64,000 bases of DNA from a virus (taxonomy: Duplodnaviria > Caudoviricetes): positions 19,923-83,922 of the IMG/VR virus record IMGVR_UViG_3300042521_003909; one strand, given 5' to 3'. The position numbers and the translations under genes are program-made. Below the pieces are notes generated by a model. It had not been told where the DNA came from, did no database searches, and worked only from the letters and a program-made list of their open reading frames with translations. Every line of letters starts with the position of its first letter. Position 1 is the first letter of the stretch. This document shows, in pieces, positions 17,107-58,127 of the stretch.

Positions 17107-17692
17107 TCAAACATGGCTGATTGGTTGCACTCACTTTGGACATGAAGCCATGTACGGCTTCAGGCGATTCAATGGAGAGAAAGTGCGCCCTTTTTCAAGC
17201 GCAGCAGAAGGCGATGCAAAGATGGTGGAGAACTGGAACTCTGCCGTTAAGCCAGGAGACAAGGTGTATGTGCTTGGCGATGTTGCGTTCAAGCCAAAAG
17301 ACATGGAGATTCTTTCAACTCTTCATGGCTCTAAGGTTCTCATCAAGGGTAACCACGACACCATGGACCTGTCCGTCTACAGGAAGTATTTTTACGACAT
17401 TCGTGCCACTCATCAACTTGCTGATGAAGTGCTGTCGCACATCCCACTGCACCCAGGGTCTCTTTACAGGCACCGGAGCAAGACAAACTGGGTTAACATC
17501 CACGCACATCTTCACGCAGAAGCGGTACTGGAGAACTATGATGGCTCCCCAGACGACATTATGAGACCACATGTTTCAGAGGACTTAAGATATTTCTCTG
17601 TATGTGTAGAGAGAATTGGCTATACTCCGATATCTCTTGAAGAAGTGCGAGACAGGATTAAAAAGAGAGGCATAGTTGAAAAGAAGAACTGA
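17099..17692 (+). CDS. Calcineurin-like metallophosphoesterase
   Basis: GCTHFGH, LGDV, GNHD, SHIP and HAHLH motifs; start re-assigned to MSSQTW. Confidence 0.85.
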   Translation: MSSQTWLIGCTHFGHEAMYGFRRFNGEKVRPFSSAAEGDAKMVENWNSAVKPGDKVYVLGDVAFKPKDMEILSTLHGSKVLIKGNHDTMDLSVYRKYFYDIRATHQLADEVLSHIPLHPGSLYRHRSKTNWVNIHAHLHAEAVLENYDGSPDDIMRPHVSEDLRYFSVCVERIGYTPISLEEVRDRIKKRGIVEKKN

Positions 17693-17981
17693 TAGTTCCG
17701 AGCGCATGCACCTCATGGAAACTGGTATCCGTGAGAGAATGGAACTTGATCAAGGTTATTCATTTAACCAGTTGATGTTTGCTGCTTCGGAGCACATTCC
17801 AGAAGGCATCAATTCAACAGAACTGAGCAAAGTAATTGACGACATGATGGCTCGCAGCATCATTATTGCAACGAGCAAAGGTGGTAAGAGTCGTTTCTTA
17901 CCGTTTTTTCACGAAGAAGCAACTTACTTCATCAATCCTTTTGGAGAACTGATGAACAAAGCAAAGGAAGCAAATGGGTAA
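17676..17981 (+). CDS. Small winged-helix-like protein with C-terminal NPFGELMNKAK motif
   Basis: Helix-helix-wing pattern; tail motif shared with neighbours. Confidence 0.6.
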   Translation: MKRRTDSSERMHLMETGIRERMELDQGYSFNQLMFAASEHIPEGINSTELSKVIDDMMARSIIIATSKGGKSRFLPFFHEEATYFINPFGELMNKAKEANG

Positions 17982-18237
17982 TTCTTTGAGTCGTTTGGAA
18001 GAAGACATCATTTGTGCTATCTCTCAGACAAGTAAGATTGATTACGATACGCTGCAGAGATGTTTAATGAAAAAGCACAAAAGTTTGCTCAAGAGAGAGT
18101 TTGAGTACTCTGTCAACAACCTTGTCAGAGAAAATTACGTTGAAAAAACATGTGTAAGAGATGCTCTGGGCAAGGTGTCATGCATTGATTTTTCTCTCAC
18201 GCCTTTTTACGATCTGCTGAGAGCGGCAAAAAACTGA
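17974..18237 (+). CDS. Small winged-helix-like protein with C-terminal TPFYDLLRAAK motif
   Basis: NNLVRENYVEK..FSLTP wing pattern. Confidence 0.6.
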   Translation: MGNSLSRLEEDIICAISQTSKIDYDTLQRCLMKKHKSLLKREFEYSVNNLVRENYVEKTCVRDALGKVSCIDFSLTPFYDLLRAAKN

Positions 18238-18587
18238 AGTTTGCGGTCACTCTGCCACTGGTCGGGATACTGATAGATAAGTATGCACCACGACCTGTTC
18301 ATTTGGTTTTTTGTTATCGGACTCCCATCTGCAATTGCATTCTTGGGATACGCATACGCCAATGAAGTCTGGCCGTTTGATCCCAAAGTTCACTACAGCA
18401 ACGATTGCTTGAGAAAGAGCAGCAATGTCTACTCCAAAAGAAAAATCTGAGTACATCACTCTGTCGATTCCAGTTTCTGCCATCAAGTGCATTGTTCTTG
18501 CTGGCTTCACGGCATGGGGAGTTTGGATTCTCTTCCAGATGGTGAAAATCATCCCCACGATCCCTTCGAAATAAAGGGGATTTTTCC

Positions 18588-18887
18588 GTGAATAAATCCA
18601 GTCCTTCAAGACTAGAGATTCAGGAAATGGCGATTGTTTTTTTGCGCAAAGGCAAATTGACCCTTGGCGAGATGTACGGTCTTTTTGAGGCTTATTACCG
18701 CACAAGTCACACCTCAAGAAGCAGTGAGTATTTTGCGGGAAGAATTATCAATGGTCTTAGTGCACTAGAAAAAAAGGGTGTTATTTTAGAAAGTCGCGCA
18801 GACAACCCGCATAATCCAACCTATGTCATCAACCCGATGTGGGAGATTTTAGACAAGGCTCGCACCGAAGCAGGCATCAAATCATGA
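18588..18887 (+). CDS. Small winged-helix-like protein with C-terminal NPMWEILDKAR motif
   Basis: LSALEKKGVI..YVINP wing pattern. Confidence 0.6.
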   Translation: MNKSSPSRLEIQEMAIVFLRKGKLTLGEMYGLFEAYYRTSHTSRSSEYFAGRIINGLSALEKKGVILESRADNPHNPTYVINPMWEILDKARTEAGIKS

Positions 18888-19291
18888 ATAGTGCCTCTTA
18901 TACAGTTTTAGATGAATTGTACAGAATTTCTAAACTGCTTGATACAGATGCGGGGGCTGTGGAGTTTGCCGTCTTACGTGAAGGCATCTCCAATCAGATT
19001 GAAGACATTGAAAGCGATGTTCTTGACTTTAAGAGAAAAGTCTTGAGCGACTGCGATGATGTCTACGGCATCGTTGCCGGAATAGAGAAGATCAGGATGT
19101 GCTCATCTGCTCGTGACAGCATTATGTCTGTTGTTGAAAAAGCGCAGAAAGACCTTTATTCATGCATCTCTATACTTGATGATGCTGTCAGGAGCATAAA
19201 CCGAGCAAGAAGTGCTGACTCTGCAAAGAGAGCTTCTTCTTATCTCTACGACGCACACCAGTGTCTTTCAGAGGCACTTAGGCTCCTTTAA
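18884..19291 (+). CDS. Hypothetical helical protein
   Basis: ATGA overlap with the previous gene. Confidence 0.55.
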   Translation: MNSASYTVLDELYRISKLLDTDAGAVEFAVLREGISNQIEDIESDVLDFKRKVLSDCDDVYGIVAGIEKIRMCSSARDSIMSVVEKAQKDLYSCISILDDAVRSINRARSADSAKRASSYLYDAHQCLSEALRLL

Positions 19292-19313
19292 TGAATGAGG
19301 CGGGAGTATAAAA

Positions 19314-20519: not shown

Positions 20520-21350
20520 ATGCCTGCCAAAAAGAAAAACAAGATCAATCCCATTCTTGCAAAGTTCTTTAAAGATGCTGTTCACAGCGACAACTTCTTA
20601 AAATTGATAGCCAAAAATTTTGCAGAGATTGATTTCTCCTATTACTCCAACAAGCTGGATGAGCCTTTTGTGTTTTGCCTTCTGGACCTTGTGAACTGCA
20701 AGGACAAGAAGATGAAGGAGATCGCATACAATGTTGCTCAGCAATCGCTGTCGAAGCGGTGCATCGACAAGGCTCTTGCGTCCAAAGATTGCCGTCTCAT
20801 GTGTATGGCTATCGAAAATGCTCGTCTGACAAAGGAGCAGGAACTCATTTGCATGACCTGCGAGTATGAGGATGTGCGGGGAACTGCTGCAGACAGTTGT
20901 CACGCGAGCAAGACGGTTTTGGGGCTTGCGCTTCAGGACGCTTCCCGGAGGGTCCGCATGGAGGCAGTAAGTAACTCCGAGATGCTCAATTACAGTGATT
21001 TGGCTGTTCAGGCTCTTAGCAGTCGTTCTCCAGATATTCGCACATCCATCACAAAATACGCCTGTTGGAGCAAGACGGTGTGCGGTGCTGATGTTCACAA
21101 GGCTGCATTGGTCAGCAAATGGACCGATGTCCGCATTGAGATCGCTGAAAGTTCCGTGTACCTCACGGAGGGTCAGTGGCATACTCTTCTGGAAGACCCC
21201 AACAAAAATGTTCGCAAGGCAGCGCGTAAGCACCCGAACGCAAAGAAGTGGAAAGATCCTCTTCGCGCTCTTCTCCGCAAGGCTCGTGCTGCGCGCAAGG
21301 CGGGCAAAGTGGTCATCGAATCCCCCGCAGCAGAACCCATTGCCGACTGA
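20520..21350 (+). CDS. HEAT-like repeat protein with DPLRALLRKAR tail
   Basis: Repeated D..VR..A units. Confidence 0.7.
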   Translation: MPAKKKNKINPILAKFFKDAVHSDNFLKLIAKNFAEIDFSYYSNKLDEPFVFCLLDLVNCKDKKMKEIAYNVAQQSLSKRCIDKALASKDCRLMCMAIENARLTKEQELICMTCEYEDVRGTAADSCHASKTVLGLALQDASRRVRMEAVSNSEMLNYSDLAVQALSSRSPDIRTSITKYACWSKTVCGADVHKAALVSKWTDVRIEIAESSVYLTEGQWHTLLEDPNKNVRKAARKHPNAKKWKDPLRALLRKARAARKAGKVVIESPAAEPIAD

Positions 21351-22132: not shown

Positions 22133-22507
22133 GTGAGCAAGAAGTATCGCAAGGCGACAAATGACATTGTGGAAGGCGCGTTTACTGCTTCTCACTCCCG
22201 TAGCGAACGAATGCTGTCAAAGTGCATGAGAGATCCGCATCCCTTGATCCGTTTTGCGGCGGCAGGAAATCCAAACGCCACGGCAAAAATACTCCGATTG
22301 GCAATGGCAGATCCGTGTCCAGAAGTTCGTGGAGCAGCCGCTTCCAATGGAAGGATCAGCCGTTCTCTGTGGAATGAAGCTGCCATTGACTCCAGCAAGC
22401 TTGTTCGCTCCGAAGCAGCAGCAAACGCCAAGGCAATCAGGAGTGGATGGAATGATCCACTTCACTCCTTGCTCTACAGTGCTAAAAAGAAAAAATTGAA
22501 GAAGTAA
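22133..22507 (+). CDS. LRV/HEAT-repeat protein with DPLHSLLYSAK tail
   Basis: IRFAAAGNPNAT, VRGAAASN and VRSEAAAN repeats. Confidence 0.7.
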   Translation: MSKKYRKATNDIVEGAFTASHSRSERMLSKCMRDPHPLIRFAAAGNPNATAKILRLAMADPCPEVRGAAASNGRISRSLWNEAAIDSSKLVRSEAAANAKAIRSGWNDPLHSLLYSAKKKKLKK

Positions 22508-22550: not shown

Positions 22551-22579
22551 TTGACGGCGCTAGCCTCTTGTGCTACCAT
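22551..22579 (+). promoter_or_regulatory. sigma70-type promoter
   Basis: TTGACG-17-TACCAT just before ATG. Confidence 0.45.
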
Positions 22580-22582
22580 ACG

Positions 22583-22894
22583 ATGAGCATGGCTAAGAAC
22601 AGTACTCCTGAAGAACTCCTGAAAGACTTAGGCAGTAAGAATGGTTATGTCCGCTGTGCTGCTGCGGAGCATCCCAATGCTACTCCCGAAGTCCTGCTGA
22701 AGGCAATCGAAGACAGGTCTGTTCGTGTGCGCCGCCATGCTGCCCGGAATCCCAATGCCACTCCCGAAGTACTCCTGAAGGCAATTGGAGACAAGGATTG
22801 GTCCGTTTGCAGCGCTGCTCAAGAGAGTTTACAAAACGATCCCCTTCTTCAACTCCAAGTCTCTGCTCTGAAGGCACAGAAAGCCGCCTCTTAA
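22583..22894 (+). CDS. LRV/HEAT-repeat protein
   Basis: 24-aa VRxxAAxNPNATPEVLLKAIxD repeats; DPLLQLQVSALK tail. Confidence 0.8.
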   Translation: MSMAKNSTPEELLKDLGSKNGYVRCAAAEHPNATPEVLLKAIEDRSVRVRRHAARNPNATPEVLLKAIGDKDWSVCSAAQESLQNDPLLQLQVSALKAQKAAS

Positions 22895-22913: not shown

Positions 22914-23183
22914 ATGACTAATAAAATCAAGACCAAGAAGCCGATCAAGTACCACTACATTTTCTTTTACAGCCGTGGAGATTATTTTGATATTTCTCAT
23001 GCACTTGAAGATTTTTACCAGCCATATTTTTGCGGGAGTGGCTGTGGAGGGAGTGGATTTGATGTCCACTTTTACTGCACCGCCAAGGAATACAAGCGCA
23101 TTGTAGCGTTTGCCCGTCGCAATTATGGCAAGATCAAGAGCGTCATTCGTTATACCGATGAAGCCTTTAATGGAGATAGCTGA
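22914..23183 (+). CDS. Hypothetical protein, paralog of 20208..20498
   Basis: Same motifs as 20208..20498. Confidence 0.65.
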   Translation: MTNKIKTKKPIKYHYIFFYSRGDYFDISHALEDFYQPYFCGSGCGGSGFDVHFYCTAKEYKRIVAFARRNYGKIKSVIRYTDEAFNGDS

Positions 23184-23184
23184 C

Positions 23185-23721
23185 ATGGCTACTTATACTC
23201 CTGAAGAACTCCTGAAAGACCTAGACAGCAATGATCGCGTTGTCCGCTATTGTGCTGCCGGGAATCCCAATGCCTCTCCCGAAGTCCTGTTGAAGGCAAT
23301 GGAAGACGATTATAAGGAAGTTCGCTGGAAGGCTGCCGATAATCCTAATGCCACTCCCGAAGTCCTGATGAAGGCAATGAAAGACAAGGAATACAGTGTC
23401 CGCTATGCTGCTGCCGGGAATCCCAATGCCACTCCCGAAATTTTGCTTAAGGCAATTGGAGACAAGAATTCGGATGTCCGCTATAATGCTGCGGAGAATC
23501 CCAACGCCTCCCCTGAAGTCCTGCTGAAGGCAATTGGAGACAGGTTTGTTAAGATCCGTGAGGCTGCTGCGTATCATCCCAATGCCACTCCCGAAATTTT
23601 GCTTAAGGCAATTGGAGACAAGAATTCGGATGTTCGCAGCGCTGCTCAAGAGAGTTTACAAAACGATCCCATTCTTCAACTCCAAGTCGCTTCTCTCAAG
23701 ACACAGAAAGTCGCCTCTTAA
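23185..23721 (+). CDS. LRV/HEAT-repeat protein
   Basis: About seven 24-aa repeats, with a near-exact internal DNA duplication; DPILQLQVASLK tail. Confidence 0.85.
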   Translation: MATYTPEELLKDLDSNDRVVRYCAAGNPNASPEVLLKAMEDDYKEVRWKAADNPNATPEVLMKAMKDKEYSVRYAAAGNPNATPEILLKAIGDKNSDVRYNAAENPNASPEVLLKAIGDRFVKIREAAAYHPNATPEILLKAIGDKNSDVRSAAQESLQNDPILQLQVASLKTQKVAS

Positions 23722-24299: not shown

Positions 24300-24680
24300 A
24301 TGACTACCAAGACTACCAATAAACTCCTGAAAGACCTAGACAACAAGGATGAAGATGTCCGCAGTTTTGCTGCCAAGCATCCCAATGCCACTCCTGAAGT
24401 CCTCCTGAAGGCAATGGGTGACGAGTATTGCTGGGTCCGCTATTATGCTGCCAAGAATCCCAATGCCACTCCTGAAATTCTGCGGAAGGCAATGGAGGAT
24501 GAAGATGAAGGTATCCGCAGTGGTGCTGCCCTGAATCCTAATGTCACTCCCGAAATCATGCTGAAGGCTCTGGAAGATAAGATTGAGCAAGTCCGCAGTG
24601 CTGCTCAAGAGAGGTTACAAAAGGATCCCATTCTTAAACTCCAGGTCGCTGCTCTGAAGGCACAGAAAGCCGCCTCTTAA
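24300..24680 (+). CDS. LRV/HEAT-repeat protein
   Basis: 24-aa repeats; DPILKLQVAALK tail. Confidence 0.85.
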   Translation: MTTKTTNKLLKDLDNKDEDVRSFAAKHPNATPEVLLKAMGDEYCWVRYYAAKNPNATPEILRKAMEDEDEGIRSGAALNPNVTPEIMLKALEDKIEQVRSAAQERLQKDPILKLQVAALKAQKAAS

Positions 24681-31919: not shown

Positions 31920-32918
31920 ATGAACGAGCACTTCACACTAAGCGACATCCCCTTTGAGACTTTGCCGCCTGAGAGCATTCGTATGCTCTGTGAGGTGGCG
32001 GTTCGCCACATGGGTAGCGCTGCCTCCGCTAAGGACATGAGCAACCTGCCCCTTACCCCTGTTAGGGGCATGGACTACCGTATTCCTGCAACCATGCGGG
32101 CGTGTCAGAGTTACGGGTACGGACACGGAAACGGGGCTTGGCGTGGGCTAGAGGACAACAAAGAGGCTGTCCTTACTCTGCTTAAGGCAGTTATGCAGGA
32201 GAAGCAGAGTCAGCCTCGCACCCATGTCTCGCTGTCCACCAAAGACATCAGCCCGTCTGTTTTTACAAACCCGGATGTTCTGTCTTTTGTCTTGGACAAT
32301 GCTTCTAGTCTTGGCTGTGATCGTGGGGGTCAAAACGGAGTCATCGAATCATCGGTGTGGTCAGCGGTCAAGGTAGAGCAATGGTTGAGCCTCTTTGAGA
32401 CTCATCCTGCCCTTGTGGGCAAGGCTTTTGCAAGCCGTCCTGAACTGATCGGTCGCCTTTTTTCTCATGTTTTTCGTGGCTCCACTTCTGCACCCATAGC
32501 CATGAATATTGCCAAGACAGTCATTGGCTTCATGCACATCTACGACAACGATAGTCCTGCGATGCTCCATCGTTTTTGGGTGGAGAAAGACACTTCCAAT
32601 CACTACAAGGACGAGGATACTTACAGCGAACTTTTCATGCACCTGTGCGTGGTGTGTCGCAAAGATTCGGTCAACATGAAGCGCATTGCCGATGATTTGG
32701 AAAGTCAGAGCGTTGGCGGCAAAAAGACCCGCCGCCGTGATGCAGGGTGGATGACTATCTACCTGAACACCAAGTGGGATCAAGGTGACAAGGAGTTTGT
32801 CATTCGCTGCTGCCGCCTTGTTCCGCCTTTGTTCAACCTGCTTTACAGCACCGCAAAGGTGTCAGGAGAGATGCGTACCCTCAAGCGCATGTATCAGTTG
32901 AGTGGAGACACGGTGTGA
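31920..32918 (+). CDS. Hypothetical helical protein
   Basis: 332-aa ORF behind the 31833 element; PPLFNLLYSTAK near the C-terminus. Confidence 0.65.
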   Translation: MNEHFTLSDIPFETLPPESIRMLCEVAVRHMGSAASAKDMSNLPLTPVRGMDYRIPATMRACQSYGYGHGNGAWRGLEDNKEAVLTLLKAVMQEKQSQPRTHVSLSTKDISPSVFTNPDVLSFVLDNASSLGCDRGGQNGVIESSVWSAVKVEQWLSLFETHPALVGKAFASRPELIGRLFSHVFRGSTSAPIAMNIAKTVIGFMHIYDNDSPAMLHRFWVEKDTSNHYKDEDTYSELFMHLCVVCRKDSVNMKRIADDLESQSVGGKKTRRRDAGWMTIYLNTKWDQGDKEFVIRCCRLVPPLFNLLYSTAKVSGEMRTLKRMYQLSGDTV

Positions 32919-33002: not shown

Positions 33003-33947
33003 ATGCCACGAACTTCTATTTCAGTTGAAGGAGTGCTTGGACACCTGAGCCTCAACCGTGAGGTTGAGTTCATGGTCCAAATGCTCGGCTGGAGTGAATC
33101 TCAGATTTTGGGTGCGATCACGACTGCTCACCCGGAACTTTCCAAAGATCAGCAGTCTCTTATTAATCACATTCGTGTCTGCCGTTCACGATACCGTGCA
33201 GATCAGAAAGAGAATGTCGAAGTGGGCGCACTTATTGGTGGCGGAACCGTTACATCCCTTGACAAGATTGCGGACAAGAAGTTGGTCCGCTTTGCATGTG
33301 GCATCGACCACATTGACATGCTTTGGGGATTCTCTGAAGATGGGAAGTCAAAAGGCTTTCCCCGTGGTCAGATCAGTCTGATTGCAGGAAGTCCCGGTGT
33401 GGGCAAGACTCGCGCAATGATTGCAGTTTGCGGAAAGATTACCGCACCGGATTACCGTCCCGCACTCAAGGCACTTTATTGGCAGAACGAGTTTGCACTT
33501 GAACAGTTCAAGACTGTTTCAAAGACGCAAATCAAGTCGGGCGCACGGTTTAGGTGTGGCGACATTCGCTCTCTCAAAGAGCAGTTGAAGGTGGTTGAAA
33601 AAGAAGTTCCTGACCTTGTGGTGGTTGATTCCATCCAAATGCTTGAAGAAGCAAAGAACAAAACAGGAATGGAAAGATGCATCGCTGCGTATAAATCTGC
33701 TGCGGTTGAAAGCAACATTCATGTCGTACTAGTTGGTCAGTTGAATAAAAAGGAACAGGTCGCAGGAAGCAGGGTGTTGGAACATCTTGTTGACTCGGTA
33801 TTTACGGCAGTTCGTGACCGTGAAACAGGAGGATTCGCCATCCGTTGTACGAAAAACAGATGGGGAATGTCAGGCATCCAAGGTTCTTTCAAGCACACAG
33901 AAAAAGGCATTGAGCCTGTCGGTGACATTACTCAAACGGAGGATTAA
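33003..33947 (+). CDS. radA: RadA/Sms-like ATPase lacking the Zn finger and Lon-like domain
   Basis: GSPGVGKT Walker A, VVVDSIQ Walker B, AGSRVLEHLVD, KNRWG (cf. KNRFG). Confidence 0.8.
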   Translation: MPRTSISVEGVLGHLSLNREVEFMVQMLGWSESQILGAITTAHPELSKDQQSLINHIRVCRSRYRADQKENVEVGALIGGGTVTSLDKIADKKLVRFACGIDHIDMLWGFSEDGKSKGFPRGQISLIAGSPGVGKTRAMIAVCGKITAPDYRPALKALYWQNEFALEQFKTVSKTQIKSGARFRCGDIRSLKEQLKVVEKEVPDLVVVDSIQMLEEAKNKTGMERCIAAYKSAAVESNIHVVLVGQLNKKEQVAGSRVLEHLVDSVFTAVRDRETGGFAIRCTKNRWGMSGIQGSFKHTEKGIEPVGDITQTED

Positions 33948-33949
33948 GC

Positions 33950-34228
33950 ATGAACAACGAAACAAGTTTGGTAAACAACAAGCCCACATTTAAGCCCCTT
34001 CCGATGTGGAAGGTGATTGTTCATAACGATGACATCAATACCTATAACCATGTCATTGGGACTTTCATGGAAATCGTGAAAATGGACAAGCAGACTGCCT
34101 ATGTCAAGACTGTTGAGGTCGATAAAGAAGGCTTGTCTATCGTTTCTGTCACTCACAAGGAGCACGCTGAACTTCTGAGAGATCAGTTGCAGTCAAAGGC
34201 TCTGACTGTCACGATTGAGCCTGATTGA
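33950..34228 (+). CDS. clpS: ClpS adaptor
   Basis: WKVIVHNDDINTYNHV..VDKEG..AE..LTVTIEP. Confidence 0.88.
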   Translation: MNNETSLVNNKPTFKPLPMWKVIVHNDDINTYNHVIGTFMEIVKMDKQTAYVKTVEVDKEGLSIVSVTHKEHAELLRDQLQSKALTVTIEPD

Positions 34229-34405
34229 TTACAAAACAAAGCGGTTGTCGTATAATGGCTATTACGCAGGTTTTCCAAACCTGACATGGGAGTTCGATCC
34301 TCCCCTACCGCATTCCTCTTTTTCCCCCTCGCCGGGGAAGTTTGGGGCGTTGGAACTCCAGCGGGGAGAACCATCATCGTTTACTACAGTTCGGAGAAAT
34401 AACAA

Positions 34406-35428
34406 ATGAATCTCGTTGAAAAGATCAAGCGCAACCGTAAGACGGGTGTTCCCACCTTCATCTTTGGTGCGCCCGGTGTTGGTAAGTCGCAGATGGTTCA
34501 TCAGGCTGCTGACGGCGATACGGTCATTGATGTTCGCCTGTCGATGCTTGATCCCGTTGACCTGCGTGGTCTGCCTACGGTTGACAAGAACGCCGATGGC
34601 GAGGCTGTCGTTGAGTGGGCGCGTCCTGAGTTCATCCCGGCTGAAGGCAAGGGCATCATCTTCTTTGATGAGTTGAACACCGCCCCTGCTGCCGTGCAGA
34701 ACGCTGCGCTTCAGATCATCCTTGACCGCAAGTGTGGTCCGCATAAGTTGGGTGACGGTTGGTACATCGTGGCTGCGGGAAACAAGGCTTCCCACAAGGC
34801 GCATGTCAACCCGCTGTCGGCTCCGCTGCGTAACCGCTTTGCCGTGGTTGAGTACGAACCCTCCGTTGAGGCGTGGTCTGCTTGGGCGATGAGCACGGGA
34901 GTTCACGATCATGTCATCGGCTTCCTGAACTTCCGTCCCGGTCTGCTCACGACCGATCCGAAGGACGAGTACGCGAACTTTGCGTCCCCTCGTTCGTGGG
35001 AGCGTGTGTCGAAGTTCCTGCAAGCGGGTCTTGACGAGCAGGAGGACATGGAGCCTCTTGTCGGCAAGGGTGCTGCTGCGGAGTTCAATGCGTACCGTAC
35101 TGAGATTCGGGACATGCCCGACATCGACGCTCTCATTGCGAAGAAGGCTGAGTTCAAGGAGAACCCGAAGAAGATCAGCATTTCCTACGCCGTGTCGATG
35201 GCTCTTGCCTCGCGCCTTTCGCGTGGTGACAAGAAGTTTGTTGGCACGAATGCGGATCGCTGCTGCGAGATTGTGTCGGCTCTGTCCCCGGAGATCGCGT
35301 GTCTTTTCTTTGTCCGTACTCTCACCTCCGATCCTCATGTCAAGACGGCTGTGTGTGAGAGCAAGGCGGCTCACAAGTGGGTGCTCACCCATGAGAAGTT
35401 GCTGACGAAGTACGGGATCAAGAAGTAA
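34406..35428 (+). CDS. MoxR-like AAA+ ATPase
   Basis: GAPGVGKS, DLRGLP, FFDELN, AAGN, LRNRF, SPRSWE. Confidence 0.88.
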   Translation: MNLVEKIKRNRKTGVPTFIFGAPGVGKSQMVHQAADGDTVIDVRLSMLDPVDLRGLPTVDKNADGEAVVEWARPEFIPAEGKGIIFFDELNTAPAAVQNAALQIILDRKCGPHKLGDGWYIVAAGNKASHKAHVNPLSAPLRNRFAVVEYEPSVEAWSAWAMSTGVHDHVIGFLNFRPGLLTTDPKDEYANFASPRSWERVSKFLQAGLDEQEDMEPLVGKGAAAEFNAYRTEIRDMPDIDALIAKKAEFKENPKKISISYAVSMALASRLSRGDKKFVGTNADRCCEIVSALSPEIACLFFVRTLTSDPHVKTAVCESKAAHKWVLTHEKLLTKYGIKK

Positions 35429-35509
35429 TCCCCCCGCAGGAGTCGGGGAGGGCGGTTCGCCGCTCTCCCCTTCTCCAACTTTTTCCCCCTCCCCCGGTGG
35501 AGTTGGAAC

Positions 35510-36766
35510 ATGGCAAAGAAGAAGAACACAACCTCTACGACCGCAACCGTCCCTGCTCCCGCTACGGACAACGCTCAGGATGTCGGACTTACTCCGTCTG
35601 AACTGAACGAACTCCGTGAGCGCATGAAGGGAATCGTGTTTCGCATGTACCGCTTCTTTCCCTTTTGGGGACTGCTTGCGGAGAACTGCAAGGTTTCCAT
35701 CGTGTCCGATAGCGCAGTCTCAACGGCTTGCGTTGACCGATACGGCAACATCCGTTTCGGAGCAAAGTTCTTCAAGGACTTGAGCGAGGATCAGGCGTTG
35801 TTCGTCCTTGCCCATGAGATCGGTCACGCTGCGTTCAGTCACATTGATCGCCGTCAGAGCCGTGATCCGTTCCTGTGGAATGTTGCGATTGACTACGCCA
35901 TCAATCTGCTCCTGAACGACAACTTTGGCGACTCCAAGTATCTCCCGAAGGGTGTGCTCCTTGACAAGAAGTACGCCGGAATGTCTGCGGAGGAGATTTA
36001 CGAGGATGTCATCAAGAACGCCAAAGTCGTGAAGGTCTACACGATGTCGGGCGACTTGGACTACAACGGTCAGGGCGACGAGGAAGGCGATGGCAATGGC
36101 ATCGTGGTTCGTGATCGCCGTGCAGAGAAGAAGCAGAGTGAGCAGGGATGGGATCAGGCAATCGCCTTGTCTCATGCCCGTGCCAAGATGCAGGGCGAGA
36201 TGCCTGAGTCTCTTGACCGTGAAGTGTCTCGCAAGTTGGAGAGCCGTGTTGATTGGCGTGAAGCCCTGAAGCAGTACCTCCGCTTTGGCGTGACTCGCAT
36301 CATGCGCGACCACTACACCTTCATGCCTCCCAATCGGCGGTTTGTCCATCAGGGGCTTTACCTTCCGTCCATGTACGGACATGACGCTCCGAAGATCGGC
36401 TTTGCCGTGGACACCTCCGGTTCGATGGGTGAAGATGAGATGTCTGCCGCAATCGCTGAGATTGACGAGATTCGCAGACAGTTCAACTGCCCTCTTTACC
36501 TTGTGGAATGCGATGCAGATGTTCACGCAGGGCGTTGGCTCACCCCGGAGGAGTCTTGCCCGACTGCCTTCAAGGGCGGCGGCGGTACGGACTTTCGCCC
36601 TGTCTTTGAGCACATCAAGGACGAGAAGGTTCCCGTGGACATCATGGTGTACCTCACCGATGGCTACGGAGAGTTCGGAGATCAGCCTGAAGTGGATGTT
36701 CTGTGGCTGACCACTACGAACCAAAAGCCTCCGTATGGTGAGCACATTCAGGTCAATGTCGGGTAA
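35510..36766 (+). CDS. Metallopeptidase-like + VWA domain protein (DUF2201-like), MoxR partner
   Basis: AHEIGH, WNVAIDYAIN, VDTSGSM (MIDAS), GGGGTDF, TDGYG. Confidence 0.85.
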   Translation: MAKKKNTTSTTATVPAPATDNAQDVGLTPSELNELRERMKGIVFRMYRFFPFWGLLAENCKVSIVSDSAVSTACVDRYGNIRFGAKFFKDLSEDQALFVLAHEIGHAAFSHIDRRQSRDPFLWNVAIDYAINLLLNDNFGDSKYLPKGVLLDKKYAGMSAEEIYEDVIKNAKVVKVYTMSGDLDYNGQGDEEGDGNGIVVRDRRAEKKQSEQGWDQAIALSHARAKMQGEMPESLDREVSRKLESRVDWREALKQYLRFGVTRIMRDHYTFMPPNRRFVHQGLYLPSMYGHDAPKIGFAVDTSGSMGEDEMSAAIAEIDEIRRQFNCPLYLVECDADVHAGRWLTPEESCPTAFKGGGGTDFRPVFEHIKDEKVPVDIMVYLTDGYGEFGDQPEVDVLWLTTTNQKPPYGEHIQVNVG

Positions 36767-37817: not shown

Positions 37818-38540
37818 ATGAAGAGCAACAAGAATGCCGTCATTCCTTTCAACTCGGCAGACATCATCAGCCGTCAGTTGAAGGTGAGTCGCAACGATTT
37901 GGTCGCTGCGGTTCAGTCGGCGCATGTGGAGTTGGTGGCGCAGTTGAACAGCCTCACGCAGTTTGAGCAGCAGTTGGGCATCGCGCCCAACGAGGGCGAG
38001 AACGGTGGCGGCGGTGAAACGAAGCGTGGTCCCGGTCGCCCGAAGGGGTCGAAGAACAAGGGTCCCGGTCGTCCCAAGACGAAGCGTGGTCCCGGTCGCC
38101 CGAAGAAGGCAAAGGGTCCCGGTCGTCCCAAGACGAAGCGTGGTCCCGGTCGCCCGAAGAAGGCAAAGGGTCCCGGTCGCCCGAAGGCGAAGCGTGGTCC
38201 CGGTCGCCCGAAGGGGTCGGGAGTCAAGCGCAAGTCGGTGAAGGGTGGCGCAACCGCCTCTCGCCGTGGTCGTAAGGCGAAGAACCCCAATGGGATGACC
38301 ATGCGTGATGCGGTGAGCAACACTCTCCGCAACTCCACGGGTCCGGTGAAGGCTGCTGCCATTGCCGAAATCCTGAAGGGTCAGGGCTTTACGAGCAAGT
38401 CCCTCAGCACTCAGGTGGCTCAGGAGTTGAGCCGCATGGTGAACGATGGACTCGCTAGCCGCCCGGAGCGTGGCTCGTATGCTTGGTCGGGCGGCAATGC
38501 CGCTCAGGAGCAGACGGCTGAAGTCGCTCAGACCGCCTGA
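37818..38540 (+). CDS. AT-hook-repeat histone-like DNA-binding protein with C-terminal winged helix
   Basis: Seven GPGRPK repeats encoded by 54-bp tandem DNA units; TMRDAV..ELSRMVNDG..RGSY. Confidence 0.8.
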   Translation: MKSNKNAVIPFNSADIISRQLKVSRNDLVAAVQSAHVELVAQLNSLTQFEQQLGIAPNEGENGGGGETKRGPGRPKGSKNKGPGRPKTKRGPGRPKKAKGPGRPKTKRGPGRPKKAKGPGRPKAKRGPGRPKGSGVKRKSVKGGATASRRGRKAKNPNGMTMRDAVSNTLRNSTGPVKAAAIAEILKGQGFTSKSLSTQVAQELSRMVNDGLASRPERGSYAWSGGNAAQEQTAEVAQTA

Positions 38541-39337: not shown

Positions 39338-39694
39338 GGGGCTGAAATGGTTTCGATTGCGAAAGGGTTATTCGATACTGCACGACGAGGCTGATGGGCA
39401 ACTCGTAAAAAGCCGATCAAAACAACAACCGCCAACGAATCGTTGATGGCTGTCGCTGCTTAAGCAGCAAAGACTTTAGACGGTGTGGCGCTTGCCCCTA
39501 AAGTCTCGTTAAGAGTGCCAATCAGCGTACTGCGAAGCCTTAGCGTACAAGGCGCTGAAAACTATATTATGAACTCTAAGGCTATCAGAGGACTCATGGT
39601 ACGAGGACTCTTCTGATGGACGGACTCGTACCTAGCGTGGAGAAGGTTCGATAGCAGTTTCGTCAACACAGGGGTTCGACTCCCCTCGGCTCCA
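39338..39694 (+). ncRNA. ssrA: tmRNA; tag ORF 39431..39463 encodes (A)ANESLMAVAA
   Basis: 5' GGGGCTGAAATGGTTTCGA; 3' AGGGGTTCGACTCCCCTCGGCTCCA with a G3-U70 Ala determinant; resume codon GCC; tag ends in AA-stop. Confidence 0.92.
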
Positions 39695-45383: not shown

Positions 45384-46601
45384 ATGAGCATCACGGTCAC
45401 ATCTTTCTTTAGCGGTTATAACTGCGCTGCTTTCACCTTGAGTGATGGCTCTGTCCGCATGATTGGCGAGGCGGGTCGTGATGGTGCTTTCGGTTTCTAC
45501 TCTAGGGGCACTCATTCGTGCTGCAAGATCACTCCGAATGGAGTAAATGTCAGCAGCGTGGGGAACAAGAACTTTCACGGACCACCGGAAAACTTTGGTC
45601 ACATTGTTCGATGCATCACCATTTGGGGGATGACTTTCGCCATTGACACTACTGGTCGCCTGTACGCTTGGGGTACTTTCGGCAAGAAGGTGTGGGAGTC
45701 TCTGCCGTTTGATCGCACCTTCAAGGACATCATTTGCGCGAAGTGGGGGACTGTCGTATTTGTGCAGACGAACGGAGAAAATCTGATCTTCAACTTCCGC
45801 AAGGACCCAAGCGCTGAGTTCATGGTGCTTGAAGAAAACGCCAAGAAGTTTGCTCCCATCGCCTCTGCTTCATACGACTCAAGTGGTGGCTACATGATGG
45901 ATGCATCAGGGAATATGCTGTGGTTCCATGACAAGAACCATGAGTTTCGTGGCGATAACAAGAAAGCACCGAAGTGGGTCACTAGCACCGTGAACGGTTG
46001 CATGTGGGCTTCTTTCAGCGAAGGCAATCTGATCTACCGTGATGTGAAGGGTGTTCATGTCGCCTTTTACGACAAGGGCAACCAATACAGGGGAATCAGC
46101 CGAATCGTAGAGGCTGTTCATAATGAGCCAAATAGTCCTGTGCATAACGCGATTGCGGCAGAGGACAACTTCAATACAGGTCATCAGTCCTTTCTCCTGA
46201 GTGACTATTCGATCTTCTCGTATGCCCCTCAGCGATACAACTGGGATAAAGACAGTCAGGGACAATCTCCTGTGTTCTCTGATGGAGTGAAGCAGTTTGA
46301 CAGTAACTTTGTTCTGACGAACAAGGGGGTTGTTATTCCCATATCTAACGAGGCGTGGAGTAGGACCGACATGGTTCTGTCTGCATTCCCTGAATGGGCA
46401 GACAACGAGGACATTGTGTTTGAGATGTGCAAGATTTCTCCCCGCAATCTTGCCTGTGCATCTACGCGACTGCGTAAGGATGTAGAGTTCTCAAAGCGCA
46501 TTGCTGCACTTGGCGCTCATGCTTTCCTTCATATTGACGGCATGGTTCGTCGCAATCGTGAACTGCGCTCGTACAAGCATCTCTATCGTTTGTCGGGCTG
46601 A
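45384..46601 (+). CDS. RCC1-like beta-propeller protein with DUF4116-like C-terminus (leaderless)
   Basis: TFAIDTTGRLYAWG; DNEDIVFEMCK..LACASTRLRKDVEF. Confidence 0.6.
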   Translation: MSITVTSFFSGYNCAAFTLSDGSVRMIGEAGRDGAFGFYSRGTHSCCKITPNGVNVSSVGNKNFHGPPENFGHIVRCITIWGMTFAIDTTGRLYAWGTFGKKVWESLPFDRTFKDIICAKWGTVVFVQTNGENLIFNFRKDPSAEFMVLEENAKKFAPIASASYDSSGGYMMDASGNMLWFHDKNHEFRGDNKKAPKWVTSTVNGCMWASFSEGNLIYRDVKGVHVAFYDKGNQYRGISRIVEAVHNEPNSPVHNAIAAEDNFNTGHQSFLLSDYSIFSYAPQRYNWDKDSQGQSPVFSDGVKQFDSNFVLTNKGVVIPISNEAWSRTDMVLSAFPEWADNEDIVFEMCKISPRNLACASTRLRKDVEFSKRIAALGAHAFLHIDGMVRRNRELRSYKHLYRLSG

Positions 46602-48556: not shown

Positions 48557-48557
48557 C

Positions 48558-49179: not shown

Positions 49180-49449
49180 ATGTCGAAGCGTCAGGACGCA
49201 AAGAAGCGGGCTTGGAATGAACTGTACGGTCAGTTAGCGGAGTCTGAAGCCACATTGGAATGTGAAGAATGTGGAACTATGCTGATCGGAGATGGTCCGA
49301 CTTATCAGATCAAGTGCCTTGACTGCTTTCTAAAGCAAGACCCTCTTGAAGAACTTATAGAGATTGCGGAGGAGCAAGATGGACAGCGAAAAGATTCTCA
49401 ACAAGATCGCAAGTGCTCATCTCAAGGAACCAATCGAAAGGCATCTTGA
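49180..49449 (+). CDS. Zn-ribbon protein with DPLEELIEIA motif (leaderless)
   Basis: ATG 30 nt after 49150; CEEC..CLDC. Confidence 0.65.
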   Translation: MSKRQDAKKRAWNELYGQLAESEATLECEECGTMLIGDGPTYQIKCLDCFLKQDPLEELIEIAEEQDGQRKDSQQDRKCSSQGTNRKAS

Positions 49450-49895: not shown

Positions 49896-50423
49896 ATGGG
49901 ATACGGATACCACAACACAGAGCACAAGAAGGCTCGTGCCAAGGCGAGTCGTATCTTGAGGAAGAAGTTGCCCGCAGGCTGGCGACTCAGGCTATCTATC
50001 AAGCGTACTCGTCATCCAAAGCACATTTTCCGCAAAGGCTTCAAGCCATATACGGAAATGAGATACGACTACCATTGGGCAACTGCAACAAAGTACCTTG
50101 GTCCAACAAAAGACCACAAGGGATACCCCTACCTCAAGTTGTTTCTTCATCCTGATGGCAGTCGTGTATGGAGTCTTTCCAACTGGGCTGACCCAAACAC
50201 CGCACCGTATGTCAGCACTCAACTAGCACTGCTTTCAGCCACCGAAATGGAGAGAGCGTTTGAATGCCTTGAAGCACTCTACGACATGTGCGACATTCGT
50301 GATGACATGAAGTTGCTCATCGGAATCAGCAAGGCAAAGAGTCTGCCTGACTGGGTAGGTTCTTTTTCCCCCGCCAAGGAAACTCTTGAGGCATGGACGA
50401 CACCCTCATCATCTCCGTGCTGA
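49896..50423 (+). CDS. Hypothetical protein (leaderless); distantly similar to 54440..54919
   Basis: ATG 30 nt after 49866; A.R.....LP.GW shared. Confidence 0.65.
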   Translation: MGYGYHNTEHKKARAKASRILRKKLPAGWRLRLSIKRTRHPKHIFRKGFKPYTEMRYDYHWATATKYLGPTKDHKGYPYLKLFLHPDGSRVWSLSNWADPNTAPYVSTQLALLSATEMERAFECLEALYDMCDIRDDMKLLIGISKAKSLPDWVGSFSPAKETLEAWTTPSSSPC

Positions 50424-51076
50424 CCGCCAACGGAAGCAACTTTGCACAGTCGCTTCTGTCCTCCTACAACAAGTGGGGCAAGTGGACCCCGAAGCAGCGT
50501 GCTTGTGCTGAGCAGATGGTTCGTGACTCTCAGGCACCGAAGCAGGCACCGCAGGTCGGTCCATTCAAGGGGATTGTTGACCTGTTTACTCGCCCCCTGT
50601 CTCTTGGCTTGAAGCGACCGGGACTTCACTTCATTCTTGATGGCAATAAGTTGACCATCACCTGCGCTCCTGCAAAGCGTGGTGCTGATCCTCACCCGAA
50701 CGCAGGATGCCTGTATGTGAAGCATGGTGGTGCGTACAGCGGTAAGATCACTCCGGGTGGAGTGTTTGCGGGTCGCCATCTCGCGCCTTCCGTGTCTGAG
50801 TTCCTTGAGGTGTTCGCAAAGGACCCTCTGAAGGTCGGCTCTGAGTATGGACGCAAGAGCGGTTGCTGCTGCTTCTGCGGTCTGACTCTGACCGATGGTC
50901 GCTCCATCTCTAAGGGCTACGGTCCAATCTGCGCCCGTCATTGGGAACTGCCGTGGGGCGATGTCTCTGAGGACAACCTCAAGAAGTCTGAGCAGTCGGA
51001 TGTTCACCCGGACATCCCGATCATTCAACTGACTCAGGCTGCTAAGGCTTCATCCGCAGATCAGCAGCCAAGTTAA
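50393..51076 (+). CDS. DUF6011-like Zn-finger protein (leaderless)
   Basis: CCFCGLTLTD..SISKGYGPICA; IPIIQLTQAAK tail. Confidence 0.75.
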   Translation: MDDTLIISVLTANGSNFAQSLLSSYNKWGKWTPKQRACAEQMVRDSQAPKQAPQVGPFKGIVDLFTRPLSLGLKRPGLHFILDGNKLTITCAPAKRGADPHPNAGCLYVKHGGAYSGKITPGGVFAGRHLAPSVSEFLEVFAKDPLKVGSEYGRKSGCCCFCGLTLTDGRSISKGYGPICARHWELPWGDVSEDNLKKSEQSDVHPDIPIIQLTQAAKASSADQQPS

Positions 51077-52611: not shown

Positions 52612-53004
52612 ATGAAGTACGAATGCGTCGCTCATCTGGGAAGCGGAGAGGGTGAGGGAAACCACTCTTTTTCGTTTGAGTTCGACACCGCTGAGGAGTG
52701 TCTGGACGAAGTGTTCTTCTTGATGAACAGCCAAGACACCACTCCGCTCCAAGCCCGCTCTATGTCGGTGGGCGATGCGGTAAGTGTTTGCCCAAAGCGT
52801 AATGGCGGACTTCCTCCAGTTACTCGCTACTTCATCTGCCTTTCAGTTGGCTGGTGCGAGGTAAGTGAGGACGCATTCAATGATTGGATGCGATACGAAT
52901 GGACGCAACGCCTGACGCATCCGCTTTCGGGCGCACAAGATCCGCTTCTTGCACTGCTCCATGTGCAGAAGATGAAGGAAGGGTTCCTGCGGGAACGGGT
53001 TTAG
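52612..53004 (+). CDS. Hypothetical protein with RSMSVGD motif and DPLLALL tail
   Basis: GGAGG RBS; RSMSVGD..Y.C..VGW (YodL-like pattern). Confidence 0.65.
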   Translation: MKYECVAHLGSGEGEGNHSFSFEFDTAEECLDEVFFLMNSQDTTPLQARSMSVGDAVSVCPKRNGGLPPVTRYFICLSVGWCEVSEDAFNDWMRYEWTQRLTHPLSGAQDPLLALLHVQKMKEGFLRERV

Positions 53005-53044: not shown

Positions 53045-53542
53045 ATGGCTACACGCAGCACAATCGGAATGGTTCGTCTTACAGACGGCAAGATCAACGC
53101 GATCTATTGCCATTGGGACGGATATCCCTCCAACAACGGTCTTTGCCTGTACCGGAACTACAATAGCCACGATGGGGCTTGGTCGCTCATGTTGCTTGGC
53201 GACCTATCATCTCTCCGCAGCAAGATCGGAGAGAAGCATGATCTGTTTGATCTTGGCGGTGTTGAGAATCGTGGCGTAACGAATGATTGGTGCGATGCTT
53301 ACGGGCGTGATCGTGGCGATGATGGTTGCGAGATGAAAACCTTTGACAACATTCGGGAGTTCAAGAAGTGGTCGAAGGGTGTTGGTGCTGACTATCTGTA
53401 CCTGTTCAAGAATGACGATCAATGGTGGGTGAATAGCCCTTACGAGTCCACCGGATTCAAGAAACTTGAGAAGGTTCTTGTTGCAGAGGGGGTCATTGAT
53501 CCGATTGAGGAACTGATCGAAGTGGCGAAGAAGTCGCAGTAG
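53045..53542 (+). CDS. Conserved phage protein (leaderless) with DPIEELIEVAK tail
   Basis: MATRSTIG..IYCHWDGYP..GDLSSL..AYGRDRG..YLYLF. Confidence 0.8.
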   Translation: MATRSTIGMVRLTDGKINAIYCHWDGYPSNNGLCLYRNYNSHDGAWSLMLLGDLSSLRSKIGEKHDLFDLGGVENRGVTNDWCDAYGRDRGDDGCEMKTFDNIREFKKWSKGVGADYLYLFKNDDQWWVNSPYESTGFKKLEKVLVAEGVIDPIEELIEVAKKSQ

Positions 53543-54439: not shown

Positions 54440-54919
54440 ATGAAGCAACAGACTACCGCCTACCATTGGACTGCCGAGCAGGGTAAGAATGGCCGCTTTG
54501 AGTACGCAAAGCGCAAGACTGCAAGGGCTGTCAAAGGACAACTCCCACCCGGATGGTCTTACAAGATCATGGCTCCGTATATCGGTGGAGGAGCGCATTG
54601 GTCGATCAAGGTCGATTACTTCAATCCAGTCGGGTCTGGAACGCGACAATGGGTGACGCTGCGTTGGTTCCCGTGTGACGAGAATTGGGATACCGTTTCA
54701 ATGTTCACGGTTCATGCCGTGATTCGACCTGACAGGCACACGAATGAAATGTATGTCAATCAGTCGTTTCAAGAATGGACGAAGGACATCGACAAGGTAA
54801 AGAGTGTCGTGCAGCAGATTTTCGATGGATTGATTCCTGATCCCCTGATGCAACTTCATGCACGGGCAAAGAAGGCAGCCAAGCAGTTTTCCCCCACCGA
54901 TCCCGAGGTTGAGCCATGA
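54440..54919 (+). CDS. Hypothetical protein (leaderless) with DPLMQLHARAK tail
   Basis: ATG 30 nt after 54410. Confidence 0.7.
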   Translation: MKQQTTAYHWTAEQGKNGRFEYAKRKTARAVKGQLPPGWSYKIMAPYIGGGAHWSIKVDYFNPVGSGTRQWVTLRWFPCDENWDTVSMFTVHAVIRPDRHTNEMYVNQSFQEWTKDIDKVKSVVQQIFDGLIPDPLMQLHARAKKAAKQFSPTDPEVEP

Positions 54920-56604: not shown

Positions 56605-56607
56605 AAC

Positions 56608-56808
56608 ATGAACCCGAAGTATCCCGACATCACCGTTGAACTGGTTGGACAGGACGGCAACGCATTCGCCATCTTGGGTCGTGTGCAGCGTGAAATGCGC
56701 CGTGGAGGTGTTCCCCGCACCGACATTGACGCTTTCTTTGCGGAAGCAACGAAGGGCAACTACGACGAACTTCTTGCCACCGTCATTCGATGGGTGAATG
56801 TTGAATAA
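56608..56808 (+). CDS. Conserved small phage protein
   Basis: LVGQDGNAFAILGRV..GNYDELL. Confidence 0.75.
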   Translation: MNPKYPDITVELVGQDGNAFAILGRVQREMRRGGVPRTDIDAFFAEATKGNYDELLATVIRWVNVE

Positions 56809-56849
56809 GGCAGCCGCACTTTTTCCCCCTCACCGGGGAAGGTTGGGTC

Positions 56850-57254
56850 ATGGAGATCAAGAAGGACGCATTCCGGCACTTGATATACGAGCGTATGCAG
56901 CAACTTGTCTCATCTGTTAGCGCAAGCATTGACGCGCTCAACGAACTCCTCCCCATGCTTGAGGGAGATGAGATCGACAAGGATGCAATCTGCTATGAGA
57001 CAGACGAGTTTCGCGCTGTTATGAAGGACGCATCGGGAGGCAAACACATTGCCCTCCTCCTGCATCCAAACGGACAAACAATGCACCGCAGGTTCTACTG
57101 CTGGTATTTCGGGGTAGACAGAAATGTCCACGACAACGGATGGCTCATCCTGACCCACCGACATCCAAGCCTGTTCGCTAGGGGATGCATCATGCGCCCA
57201 AACGACTTCACCAAGAGCATGGCACTGCTCAAGACAATGGAGGACACCAAGTGA
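56850..57254 (+). CDS. Hypothetical protein (leaderless)
   Basis: ATG 30 nt after 56820. Confidence 0.65.
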   Translation: MEIKKDAFRHLIYERMQQLVSSVSASIDALNELLPMLEGDEIDKDAICYETDEFRAVMKDASGGKHIALLLHPNGQTMHRRFYCWYFGVDRNVHDNGWLILTHRHPSLFARGCIMRPNDFTKSMALLKTMEDTK

Positions 57255-57475
57255 AGATCTATGCAAAGTCTGAAGCATGGGTTGACTGTCTTTGTCCCAA
57301 GTGCGGCAAGCAGATCGCATGGATCAATGATGTTCCGCCACGCGCCTACTGTTGGGGAACTAGCACTAACGAGCATGAGGAAGTAAGTTTTCTCGTCAAG
57401 TTCAACGAAAGTACTGGATCATGGGTTCCAGTTGACGAGATGGTGCATCTCATCAACAAGGCGAAGCACCGTTAG
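57251..57475 (+). CDS. Small Zn-ribbon protein with DEMVHLINKAK tail
   Basis: GTG start with GGAGG RBS; CPKC. Confidence 0.55.
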   Translation: MKIYAKSEAWVDCLCPKCGKQIAWINDVPPRAYCWGTSTNEHEEVSFLVKFNESTGSWVPVDEMVHLINKAKHR

Positions 57476-57516
57476 TCCAGTCGCCCTTTTTCCCCTCGCA
57501 CCGGGAGGCTTGCACC

Positions 57517-57819
57517 GTGAAGATCAAACACGCACTGGCTGAACTCAAGCGGATGAAGAAGGATTACGGTGAAGATTGCGACATCTTCTACTTCGCCGTT
57601 GCTCCTGACTTGGTGATGGACGCAGGCGAGACATTCAACAAGCACATCTCCGTCTATTGGGCGCAAAGAATCCTCAAGGACATCAGCGTTGAGGAGGAAA
57701 CCGTTGGTCATGTATTTCAGGCGTTTGATCGCATGGTTGACGAGCGCGTGAGCCTGTTCAATCCTGATCCGTTGGAAGAACTACACGACACAGCAAAGGC
57801 AAAGAGGAAGAAGAAATAA
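57517..57819 (+). CDS. Hypothetical protein (leaderless GTG) with DPLEELHDTAK tail
   Basis: GTG 30 nt after 57487. Confidence 0.7.
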   Translation: MKIKHALAELKRMKKDYGEDCDIFYFAVAPDLVMDAGETFNKHISVYWAQRILKDISVEEETVGHVFQAFDRMVDERVSLFNPDPLEELHDTAKAKRKKK

Positions 57820-58127
57820 TGCCAACCGCAGCAGAACTCATCAAGACCATCGAAATGATGGCAAGTCGCTACCCAACCGGACTAGAGACTCATATGGCGA
57901 TGAGCCTGTGGGTTCCCGACGATGTTGCGTCCATGATTCAGGACAATCTCCTTGATGACAGGAAGTTCAGCGATAACGACATCGCTTGCATCCTTGACGA
58001 CATCTCGCAGCATCATGACGCATCGGTAGGCATCAACTGGAGCGTGATTGAGGCAGCGATCAGCAACTATCAGATTCCCGATCCGCTGGAGCAACTGATA
58101 GATGCCGCAAAGGGGCAGCAGGAATAG
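57819..58127 (+). CDS. Hypothetical protein with DPLEQLIDAAK tail
   Basis: TAATG coupling; W..DDV..HDASVGINW. Confidence 0.7.
   Translation: MPTAAELIKTIEMMASRYPTGLETHMAMSLWVPDDVASMIQDNLLDDRKFSDNDIACILDDISQHHDASVGINWSVIEAAISNYQIPDPLEQLIDAAKGQQE

Follow-up and report, generated by a model that had tools for sequence, protein, structure and literature searches.

A portable C-terminal helix on mostly unrelated accessory proteins of one huge-phage lineage: a candidate docking tag

Why should a set of small and mostly unrelated phage proteins end in nearly the same eleven residues? The question is raised by the 64-kb window analyzed here, the terminal stretch of a single 83,922-bp virus record of IMG/VR (IMGVR_UViG_3300042521_003909), in which a sequence-only reading had pointed to one motif, [DN]-P-[LIFM]-x-x-L-x-x-x-A-[KR], near the C-termini of many encoded proteins. 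Both pattern counts and a motif-blind seed search confirmed it. The motif, here called the tag, is real, is selected as protein, is modular, and is modelled as a separate helix. We consider it probable that the tag is a portable, lineage-specific C-terminal docking helix, that is, a short linear motif read by a common partner. Asp or Asn followed by Pro would start the helix, positions 3, 6, 7, and 10 would form its hydrophobic face, usually with a Lys after it, and the helix would have been joined C-terminally to small accessory proteins that evolve fast and represent no fewer than 12 unrelated families in a phage of about 400 kb. One common receptor would then read it and so gather a changing set of proteins at one place or on one machine. 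The existence and the identity of such a single reader are what we infer from the evidence below.

The carriers are named here by the starts of their open reading frames (ORFs), which is what the coordinates first given for them denote. All are on the + strand, and the motif lies near the C-terminus of each, ending 0–29 residues before the stop. The strict pattern [DN]P[LIFM]..L...A[KR] matched seven times in the six frames of the whole record, each time 3–20 residues from a stop, as compared with a mean of 0.09 and a maximum of 2 matches in 100 within-ORF shuffles. A looser pattern gave 15 matches versus 1.45 in shuffles, all of them at most 30 residues from a stop; one (43356) is in an off-frame ORF and probably arose by chance. 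When the last 35 residues of every ORF 80 or more residues long (241 in total) were searched for seeds, with neither a gene caller nor knowledge of the motif, this motif was the most widely shared 11-mer. At a BLOSUM sum of at least 20 its seed was common to 14 ORFs, versus 9 each for N-terminal and middle segments and at most 10 for shuffles, which is an enrichment at the C-terminus over internal positions and background alike; at a sum of at least 25 it was common to 7 ORFs versus 4 in shuffles. In a leave-one-out test of a position-specific scoring matrix, 8 of the 12 non-redundant instances scored above the best non-carrier position in the record (12.9 bits), three scored 11–12 bits, level with the best background, and one (17974) was lower, at 5.4 bits. 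Scores at background level were obtained for 57185 (5.8 bits), 49896 (3.0 bits), and 31920 (2.4 bits).

The identity of the first, second, and third codon positions across the 18 listed instances was 0.47, 0.62, and 0.33, respectively. Third positions are scrambled, and therefore selection acts on the protein, as had been supposed when the motif was taken for a protein-level feature and not a DNA repeat. This bears directly on the possibility that the tag is a translated DNA-level feature (a cassette end, a promoter, or a recombination site) or a chance pattern. In favor of a DNA-level origin, a repeated terminator/promoter-like element flanks genes of the second carrier cluster. The promoter-like part, [CG]TTTT[TC]CCCC, occurs in 40 copies on the + strand and in none on the - strand between window positions 31832 and 63345, often just 3' of a hairpin rich in guanine and cytosine (G+C), and in many cases exactly 31 nt before an ATG, a spacing that would leave a nearly leaderless transcript. 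A scan of IMG/VR for the full pattern returned this lineage only, plus chance singles. Six second-cluster carriers have the element exactly 31 nt upstream of their start, and it is absent before all first-cluster carriers; therefore, the tag crosses two transcription contexts, and the earlier statement that the carriers span two promoter classes stands. With first-cluster carriers devoid of the element, third codon positions only 33% identical, a varying distance to the stop, and 0.09 shuffled matches against the seven observed, an origin in DNA structure or chance is scarcely credible and, as far as sequence can show, already refuted.

Homologs outside the lineage indicate that the tag is an addition to its carriers and not a part of their folds. 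The family of 53045 comprises more than 7,900 proteins; among its 120 best homologs the tag is present in nine, which are the nine closest (43–99% identity), and the other 111 end differently. The tag lies past the end of the profiles phrog_1987 (53045) and phrog_10258 (57819); among the matches listed, homologs of 50393 from outside the lineage extend no further than residue 204, with the tag starting at residue 208; and the G004 ortholog (see below) of the 49141 zinc ribbon (carrier 49180) stops right after the ribbon, without a tag. The proposal of an added module, with homologs of 53045, 50393, and 57819 ending before it, is thus borne out. One argument for it needs qualification: the 62420 paralog of 50393 does lack the tag, but its entire C-terminal half is gone too, and it is no clean test. 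The paralogy of the ORF starting near 62420 (62168–62899) with 50393 is limited to the first 141 residues of the latter (28% identity, E = 2e-8), and this ORF is devoid of DUF6011.

The tag is also confined to one lineage. Its members include G001, syntenic with positions 22.6–63.9 kb of the window at 68–83% nucleotide identity, and the more distant G004 and G005, with MoxR 85% identical; in G006 and G007 MoxR is 61% identical. The gene order from about 17 kb on is matched in G001 and G004. We compared 240 control loci (2.7 Mb). Of 80 IMG/VR loci that encode a homolog of 53045 (1.24 Mb), only three had near-stop matches, with 5–6 each, all of this lineage, and the other 77 had none. The 80 metagenome loci (0.58 Mb) contained one true match, in a 98%-identical fragment, and three singles in ORFs of 54–65 codons. 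A further 80 loci (902 kb), from other phages in which a MoxR/VWA gene pair occurs, had no near-stop match at all, and therefore this pair does not travel with the tag. Multiple near-stop matches among the controls were limited to L001–L003; L107, the 98%-identical fragment, had one, and the three other single matches were chance-like. In G004 and G005 the tag is on an LRV protein, the DUF6011 ortholog, the 49896-type ortholog, and one further ORF, and several carriers have no ortholog there; there was no tag in the 52 kb of G006 and G007. No close relative was found among cultured phages (megablast of the DNA, tblastn of 57819) and nothing close to the lineage among GTDB genomes, and one metagenome scan returned a single 1.1-kb piece. 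MoxR and VWA queries for longer lineage contigs returned fragments of at most 75 kb and no complete genome.

Within the lineage the tag is better conserved than the proteins that bear it. In ten ortholog pairs with G001, 83 of 110 tag residues (75%) are identical, as compared with 416 of 965 (43%) in the remainder, and in six of the ten pairs the tag is among the top four of all 11-residue windows. Similarly, P0122 retains 10 of 11 tag residues of 54440 at an overall identity of 45%. The carriers contrast in this with MoxR, the RadA-like ATPase, and ClpS, whose identity in G001 is 97%, 92%, and 90%, respectively.

The composition of the tag was derived from 24 instances (G000 and G001), for which the selecting pattern itself fixed positions 1 (Asp, Asn, or Thr) and 2 (Pro in all 24). 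Leu, Phe, Ile, or Met occupies position 3; Leu is found at position 6 in 22 instances and Ile in 2, Ala at position 10 in 21, and Lys or Arg at position 11 in 18. The basic end ascribed to the tag by the sequence-only reading is not general: the 11-residue core has a net positive charge in only 5 of the 24, is neutral in 8 and negative in 11, reaching -5 in some cores. Lys/Arg runs follow several tags. In the AlphaFold2 model of 53045 (predicted local distance difference test, pLDDT, 89.8) the last helix comprises residues 153–164 and follows a break at 148–152; in that of 54440 (pLDDT 71.8, tail end disordered) it comprises residues 135–149 after a break at 132–134. In both, the tag is modelled as a separate terminal helix.

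The carriers (Table 1) comprise 14 canonical and three variant instances. When their tags were trimmed and the remainders compared all against all by BLASTP, only the five LRV/HEAT proteins were linked (E ≤ 3e-5), with a marginal match between 49896 and 54440 (E = 0.014). Thus, of the 16–18 unrelated carriers originally proposed, 17 instances remain and are mostly unrelated, but they represent about 12 families, five of the carriers being LRV/HEAT paralogs, and 31920 had to be dropped. For most of them no Pfam or PHROG family was found; just two homologs of 54440 turned up among 5.8 billion proteins, and no PDB entry matched the fold of the modelled 53045 at E ≤ 0.001. In the variant of 50393 a single additional residue separates Asp from Pro, and the 49896-type variant has Asp, Glu, or Lys in the place of the canonical Pro; we accepted both because their G004 and G005 orthologs keep the same variant. 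The third, 57185, was kept on its form alone (D-E-M...L-I-x-K-A-K), as it has no G001 ortholog and its G007 homolog ends without a tag.

Table 1. Proteins carrying the C-terminal tag, designated by ORF start (window positions; all coordinates in nt)
ORF	Strand	Protein	Class	Tag	Tag position	Residues to stop	Identity to G001 ortholog and remarks
17676–17981	+	101 residues, no family	canonical	NPFGELMNKAK	17934–17966	4	tag 9/11, elsewhere 39%
17974–18237	+	87 residues	canonical	TPFYDLLRAAK	18199–18231	1	tag 9/11, elsewhere 39%; weakest canonical instance, 5.4 bits
18588–18887	+	99 residues	canonical	NPMWEILDKAR	18831–18863	7	tag 6/11, remainder 21%
20520–21350	+	276 residues, weak HEAT match	canonical	DPLRALLRKAR	21255–21287	20	
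22133–22507	+	124 residues, HEAT	canonical	DPLHSLLYSAK	22454–22486	6	
22568–22894	+	108 residues, LRV/HEAT paralog	canonical	DPLLQLQVSAL(K)	22838–22870		
23110–23721	+	203 residues, LRV/HEAT (Pfam HEAT 1.8e-18, LRV 7.7e-15)	canonical	DPILQLQVASL(K)	23665–23697		
24300–24680	+	126 residues, LRV/HEAT paralog	canonical	DPILKLQVAAL(K)	24624–24656		
49180–49449	+	89 residues, Cys4 zinc-ribbon-like	canonical	DPLEELIEIAE	49339–49371	25	tag 10/11; G004 ortholog without tag
49896–50423	+	175 residues	variant	DDMKLLIGISK	50301–50333	29	D-x-M..[LM][VI]GI[AS]K in G001, G004, and G005 orthologs
50393–51076	+	227 residues, DUF6011	variant	D-IPIIQLTQAAK	51014–51046	9	D-x-P-I-L-x-[LM]-x-x-[AS]-A-K in G004 and G005
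52612–53004	+	130 residues	canonical	DPLLALLHVQK	52939–52971	10	tag 11/11, elsewhere 57%
53045–53542	+	165 residues, phrog_1987 family	canonical	DPIEELIEVAK	53498–53530	3	
54440–54919	+	159 residues, lineage-only family	canonical	DPLMQLHARAK	54839–54871	15	
57185–57475	+	possible carrier, 96 residues or shorter, zinc-ribbon-like	variant	DEMVHLINKAK	57434–57466	2	5.8 bits
57517–57819	+	100 residues	canonical	DPLEELHDTAK	57766–57798	6	Lys/Arg run after tag
57819–58127	+	102 residues, phrog_10258 over residues 8–82	canonical	DPLEQLIDAAK	58080–58112	4	tag 7/11, remainder 27%

The candidate 31920 was rejected since, apart from its low score, its G004 and G005 orthologs lack the pattern, and the segment in question is inside a C-terminal piece of 40 residues that is present in 45384 as well. 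The two proteins have only these last ~40 residues in common (32790–32918 and 46480–46601; BLASTP E = 0.005). The piece ends in E-x-R-[ST]-x-K-x-x-Y-x-L-S-G, is kept in the G004 and G005 orthologs, and may be a second shared C-terminal module.

The record itself is incomplete. CheckV estimates its completeness at ~21%, and gives 12% for a 49.5-kb relative and 19% for a 74.9-kb one; therefore, the genome should be near 400 kb in size. The record encodes ten tRNA genes and a transfer-messenger RNA (tmRNA), and its Pfam matches include sugar-nucleotide and glycosyltransferase genes, UvdE, DUF932, DUF6011, DUF1281_C, RCC1-like proteins, and the LRV/HEAT array, as well as a RadA-like ATPase (33003, with a match in the PDB too), ClpS (33950), a MoxR AAA+ ATPase (34406), and an HExxH plus VWA protein (35510). 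No structural gene was found by Pfam in the record. The G+C content of the window climbs steadily from 0.34 to 0.59 within the one contig, with the sugar and glycosyltransferase genes in the low-G+C part. A proteostasis and repair cluster (33003–36766 and 39338–39694) contains the RadA-like ATPase, which has neither Zn-finger nor Lon domains, ClpS 3 nt downstream, tRNA-Gly, MoxR, the HExxH plus VWA protein, and the tmRNA, whose tag is ANESLMAVAA; the cluster is 85–97% identical in G001, far above the tagged genes. At 37818–38540 lies a gene for a 240-residue protein in which the AT-hook-like unit G-P-G-R-P-K is repeated in tandem about six times, arising from 27-nt DNA repeats; the protein is a candidate for a role in DNA binding or in a phage nucleoid. 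G004 extends 30 kb beyond the window, into metabolic and helicase-like genes; one ORF there (L206, 17608–18933) encodes a 442-residue protein with a sub-threshold Cohesin match (E = 3e-4, 21.3 bits; cut-off 24.1).

Taken together, the evidence argues against chance, a DNA feature, an integral helix of each family, and a membrane anchor, and makes docking on a common partner the reading that we prefer. Several points weigh against it. No reader was found in the available ~21% of the genome, which contains no structural genes and thus leaves a virion destination conjectural. The gene calls were made by plain ORF logic without a trained gene finder. In two of the ten G001 pairs (53045 and 24300) many other windows are as conserved as the tag. 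The tag helix of 53045 has a pLDDT of 84–88, and so, judging from the model, it could pack on its own domain instead of being free. Finally, a reader requiring a free C-terminus is not easily reconciled with the 0–29 residues between tag and stop and with the unconserved flanks. Genes for a capsid, a clamp, ClpX, or ClpP were not found in the available fifth of the genome. A complex prediction for the 53045 tail (residues 125–165) with VWA, the RadA-like ATPase, and ClpS, run without MoxR and without controls, scored 0.00, which gives no answer either way. As to what the reader might be, a phage-built assembly, e.g., the interior of the procapsid for co-injection, is a possibility suggested by analogy with the capsid targeting sequence of T4; an AAA+ unfoldase or protease or its adaptor, for timed removal or remodelling, seems less likely than that, and a host hub (RNA polymerase, clamp, or ribosome) less likely still, and the remaining weight is on something else. 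To call the carriers effectors, as the sequence-only reading did, is an assumption.

A rival reading is that the tag is a degradation or remodelling signal, which would tether early proteins to an AAA+ machine, whether of the Clp/Lon type or another, for their scheduled removal or unfolding. The presence in the same record of ClpS (Pfam 1.1e-17), tmRNA, MoxR, the HExxH plus VWA protein, and the RadA-like ATPase would suit this, as would the Lys/Arg runs after several tags. However, neither ClpP nor a Clp-type AAA_2 domain over cut-off was found in five lineage fragments, which is weak evidence, as each represents only ~7–21% of the genome. Moreover, ClpS reads N-termini, the 80 other phage loci with the MoxR/VWA pair do without the tag, and the tag, a helix with an N-cap and no fixed distance to the stop, does not resemble terminal degrons such as ssrA LAA or that of MuA. 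We regard a degradation signal as unlikely. Docking of the carriers on a host hub (RNA polymerase, the sliding clamp, the ribosome, or a division protein) for host takeover is more doubtful: the carriers do resemble early accessory proteins in being small, orphan, and fast-evolving, and some of their bodies look helix-turn-helix-like or zinc-ribbon-like by eye, but the tag has no likeness to the clamp-binding motifs QL[SD]LF and PIP-box, and there is no evident reason for about 12 families to need one host site.

If, instead, the helix acted in cis, as a generic cap or stabilizer of the C-terminus or of its own domain, there would be no common partner to look for. Asp-Pro is a generic helix N-cap, the pLDDT of the 53045 tag helix is fairly high, and the helix might cap the repeats in the LRV proteins; yet positions 3, 6, 10, and 11 are the same on bodies unrelated in sequence, and the same families outside the lineage do without the tag, which makes a cis role improbable. 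A membrane-targeting amphipathic helix of the MinD/FtsA type is still more improbable. The terminal position and amphipathic character of the tag helix would suit it, as would the Lys-rich flanks of some copies, but the core is more often negative (11/24) than positive (5/24) and goes down to -5, the hydrophobic face, which has Ala at position 10, is small, and lipid binding would not be expected to demand strict conservation of sequence.

If docking on one reader does exist, one short peptide would define a functional class among the orphan genes of a huge phage, to which about one-seventh of the ORFs in the stretch would belong. As bait or in reporter fusions, the peptide would provide a direct handle on that class and could inform on dozens of proteins without homologs, and phage engineers could readily use a portable tag of 11–15 residues to load or recruit foreign proteins. 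More broadly, huge phages might run addressing systems of their own, in which DPLxxLxxxAK would route at least 17 accessory proteins, the variable, binder-like LRV/HEAT array included, to one phage-specified destination (procapsid, compartment, or phage-controlled unfoldase), with other clades using different tags; this wider proposal we offer tentatively.

How does the tag compare with known systems? A narrow search of the literature on conserved C-terminal motifs in jumbo phages and on C-terminal short linear motifs of bacteriophages gave no such tag among the matches listed. Clp degrons and adaptor tethers (the ssrA tag, the MuA C-terminus, the XB tail of SspB) are extended and located at the very end of proteins, and ClpS reads N-termini. 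The tag is like the degrons in being a short C-terminal label on many unrelated proteins, with a ClpS gene and tmRNA in the same record, but unlike them it is an N-capped helix followed by 0–29 unconserved residues, and is not at the extreme C-terminus. Peptides that bind sliding clamps (PIP-box, the beta-clamp motif, the clients of T4 gp45) are characterized by Gln with aromatic or Leu-Phe residues, whereas no such residues appear in the columns of the 24 tags; the clamp family PF02916 had no match in the lineage fragments, and none in the control genomes either.

The MoxR/VWA pair of this record has a counterpart in NorQ and NorD: a hexamer of NorQ (MoxR) is described as binding the C-terminus of NorD (VWA), the very last two residues of which are essential (PMC13036017). 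The tag differs in not being terminal, the phage VWA protein has a different C-terminus, and the tag is missing from other phages that have the pair; in addition, the NorD peptide belongs to the VWA partner itself, and the tag sits on other proteins. The nuclear import of chimalliviruses (PicA/Imp1) is stated to dispense with a terminal signal (PMC12908238). By analogy, that system may nevertheless resemble the one proposed here, as a phage-encoded means of choosing which proteins enter a phage-built compartment. Encapsulation peptides of bacterial microcompartments are described as short helices joined by linkers to unrelated cargo at either terminus (PMC12339742, PMC4594438). Like them, the tag is a short terminal helix that is apart from the body in the AlphaFold2 models of 53045 and 54440 and lies outside family profiles; unlike them, it has a different sequence pattern and a viral setting, and none of five lineage fragments, each ~7–21% of the genome, encodes a microcompartment shell protein (PF00936).

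Among the nearest parallels, along with the encapsulation peptides and the Clp labels, is the capsid targeting sequence (CTS) of T4, which attaches to the scaffolding core and is removed by the prohead protease. The CTS is N-terminal, whereas all tags lie 0–29 residues from the C-terminus, with no cleavage site evident. The internal proteins of T4 are described as a diverse, fast-changing set that shares only this short sequence, an address to one destination (PMC3012670). In the same way, the tag is a short peptide common to otherwise unrelated, variable phage proteins.

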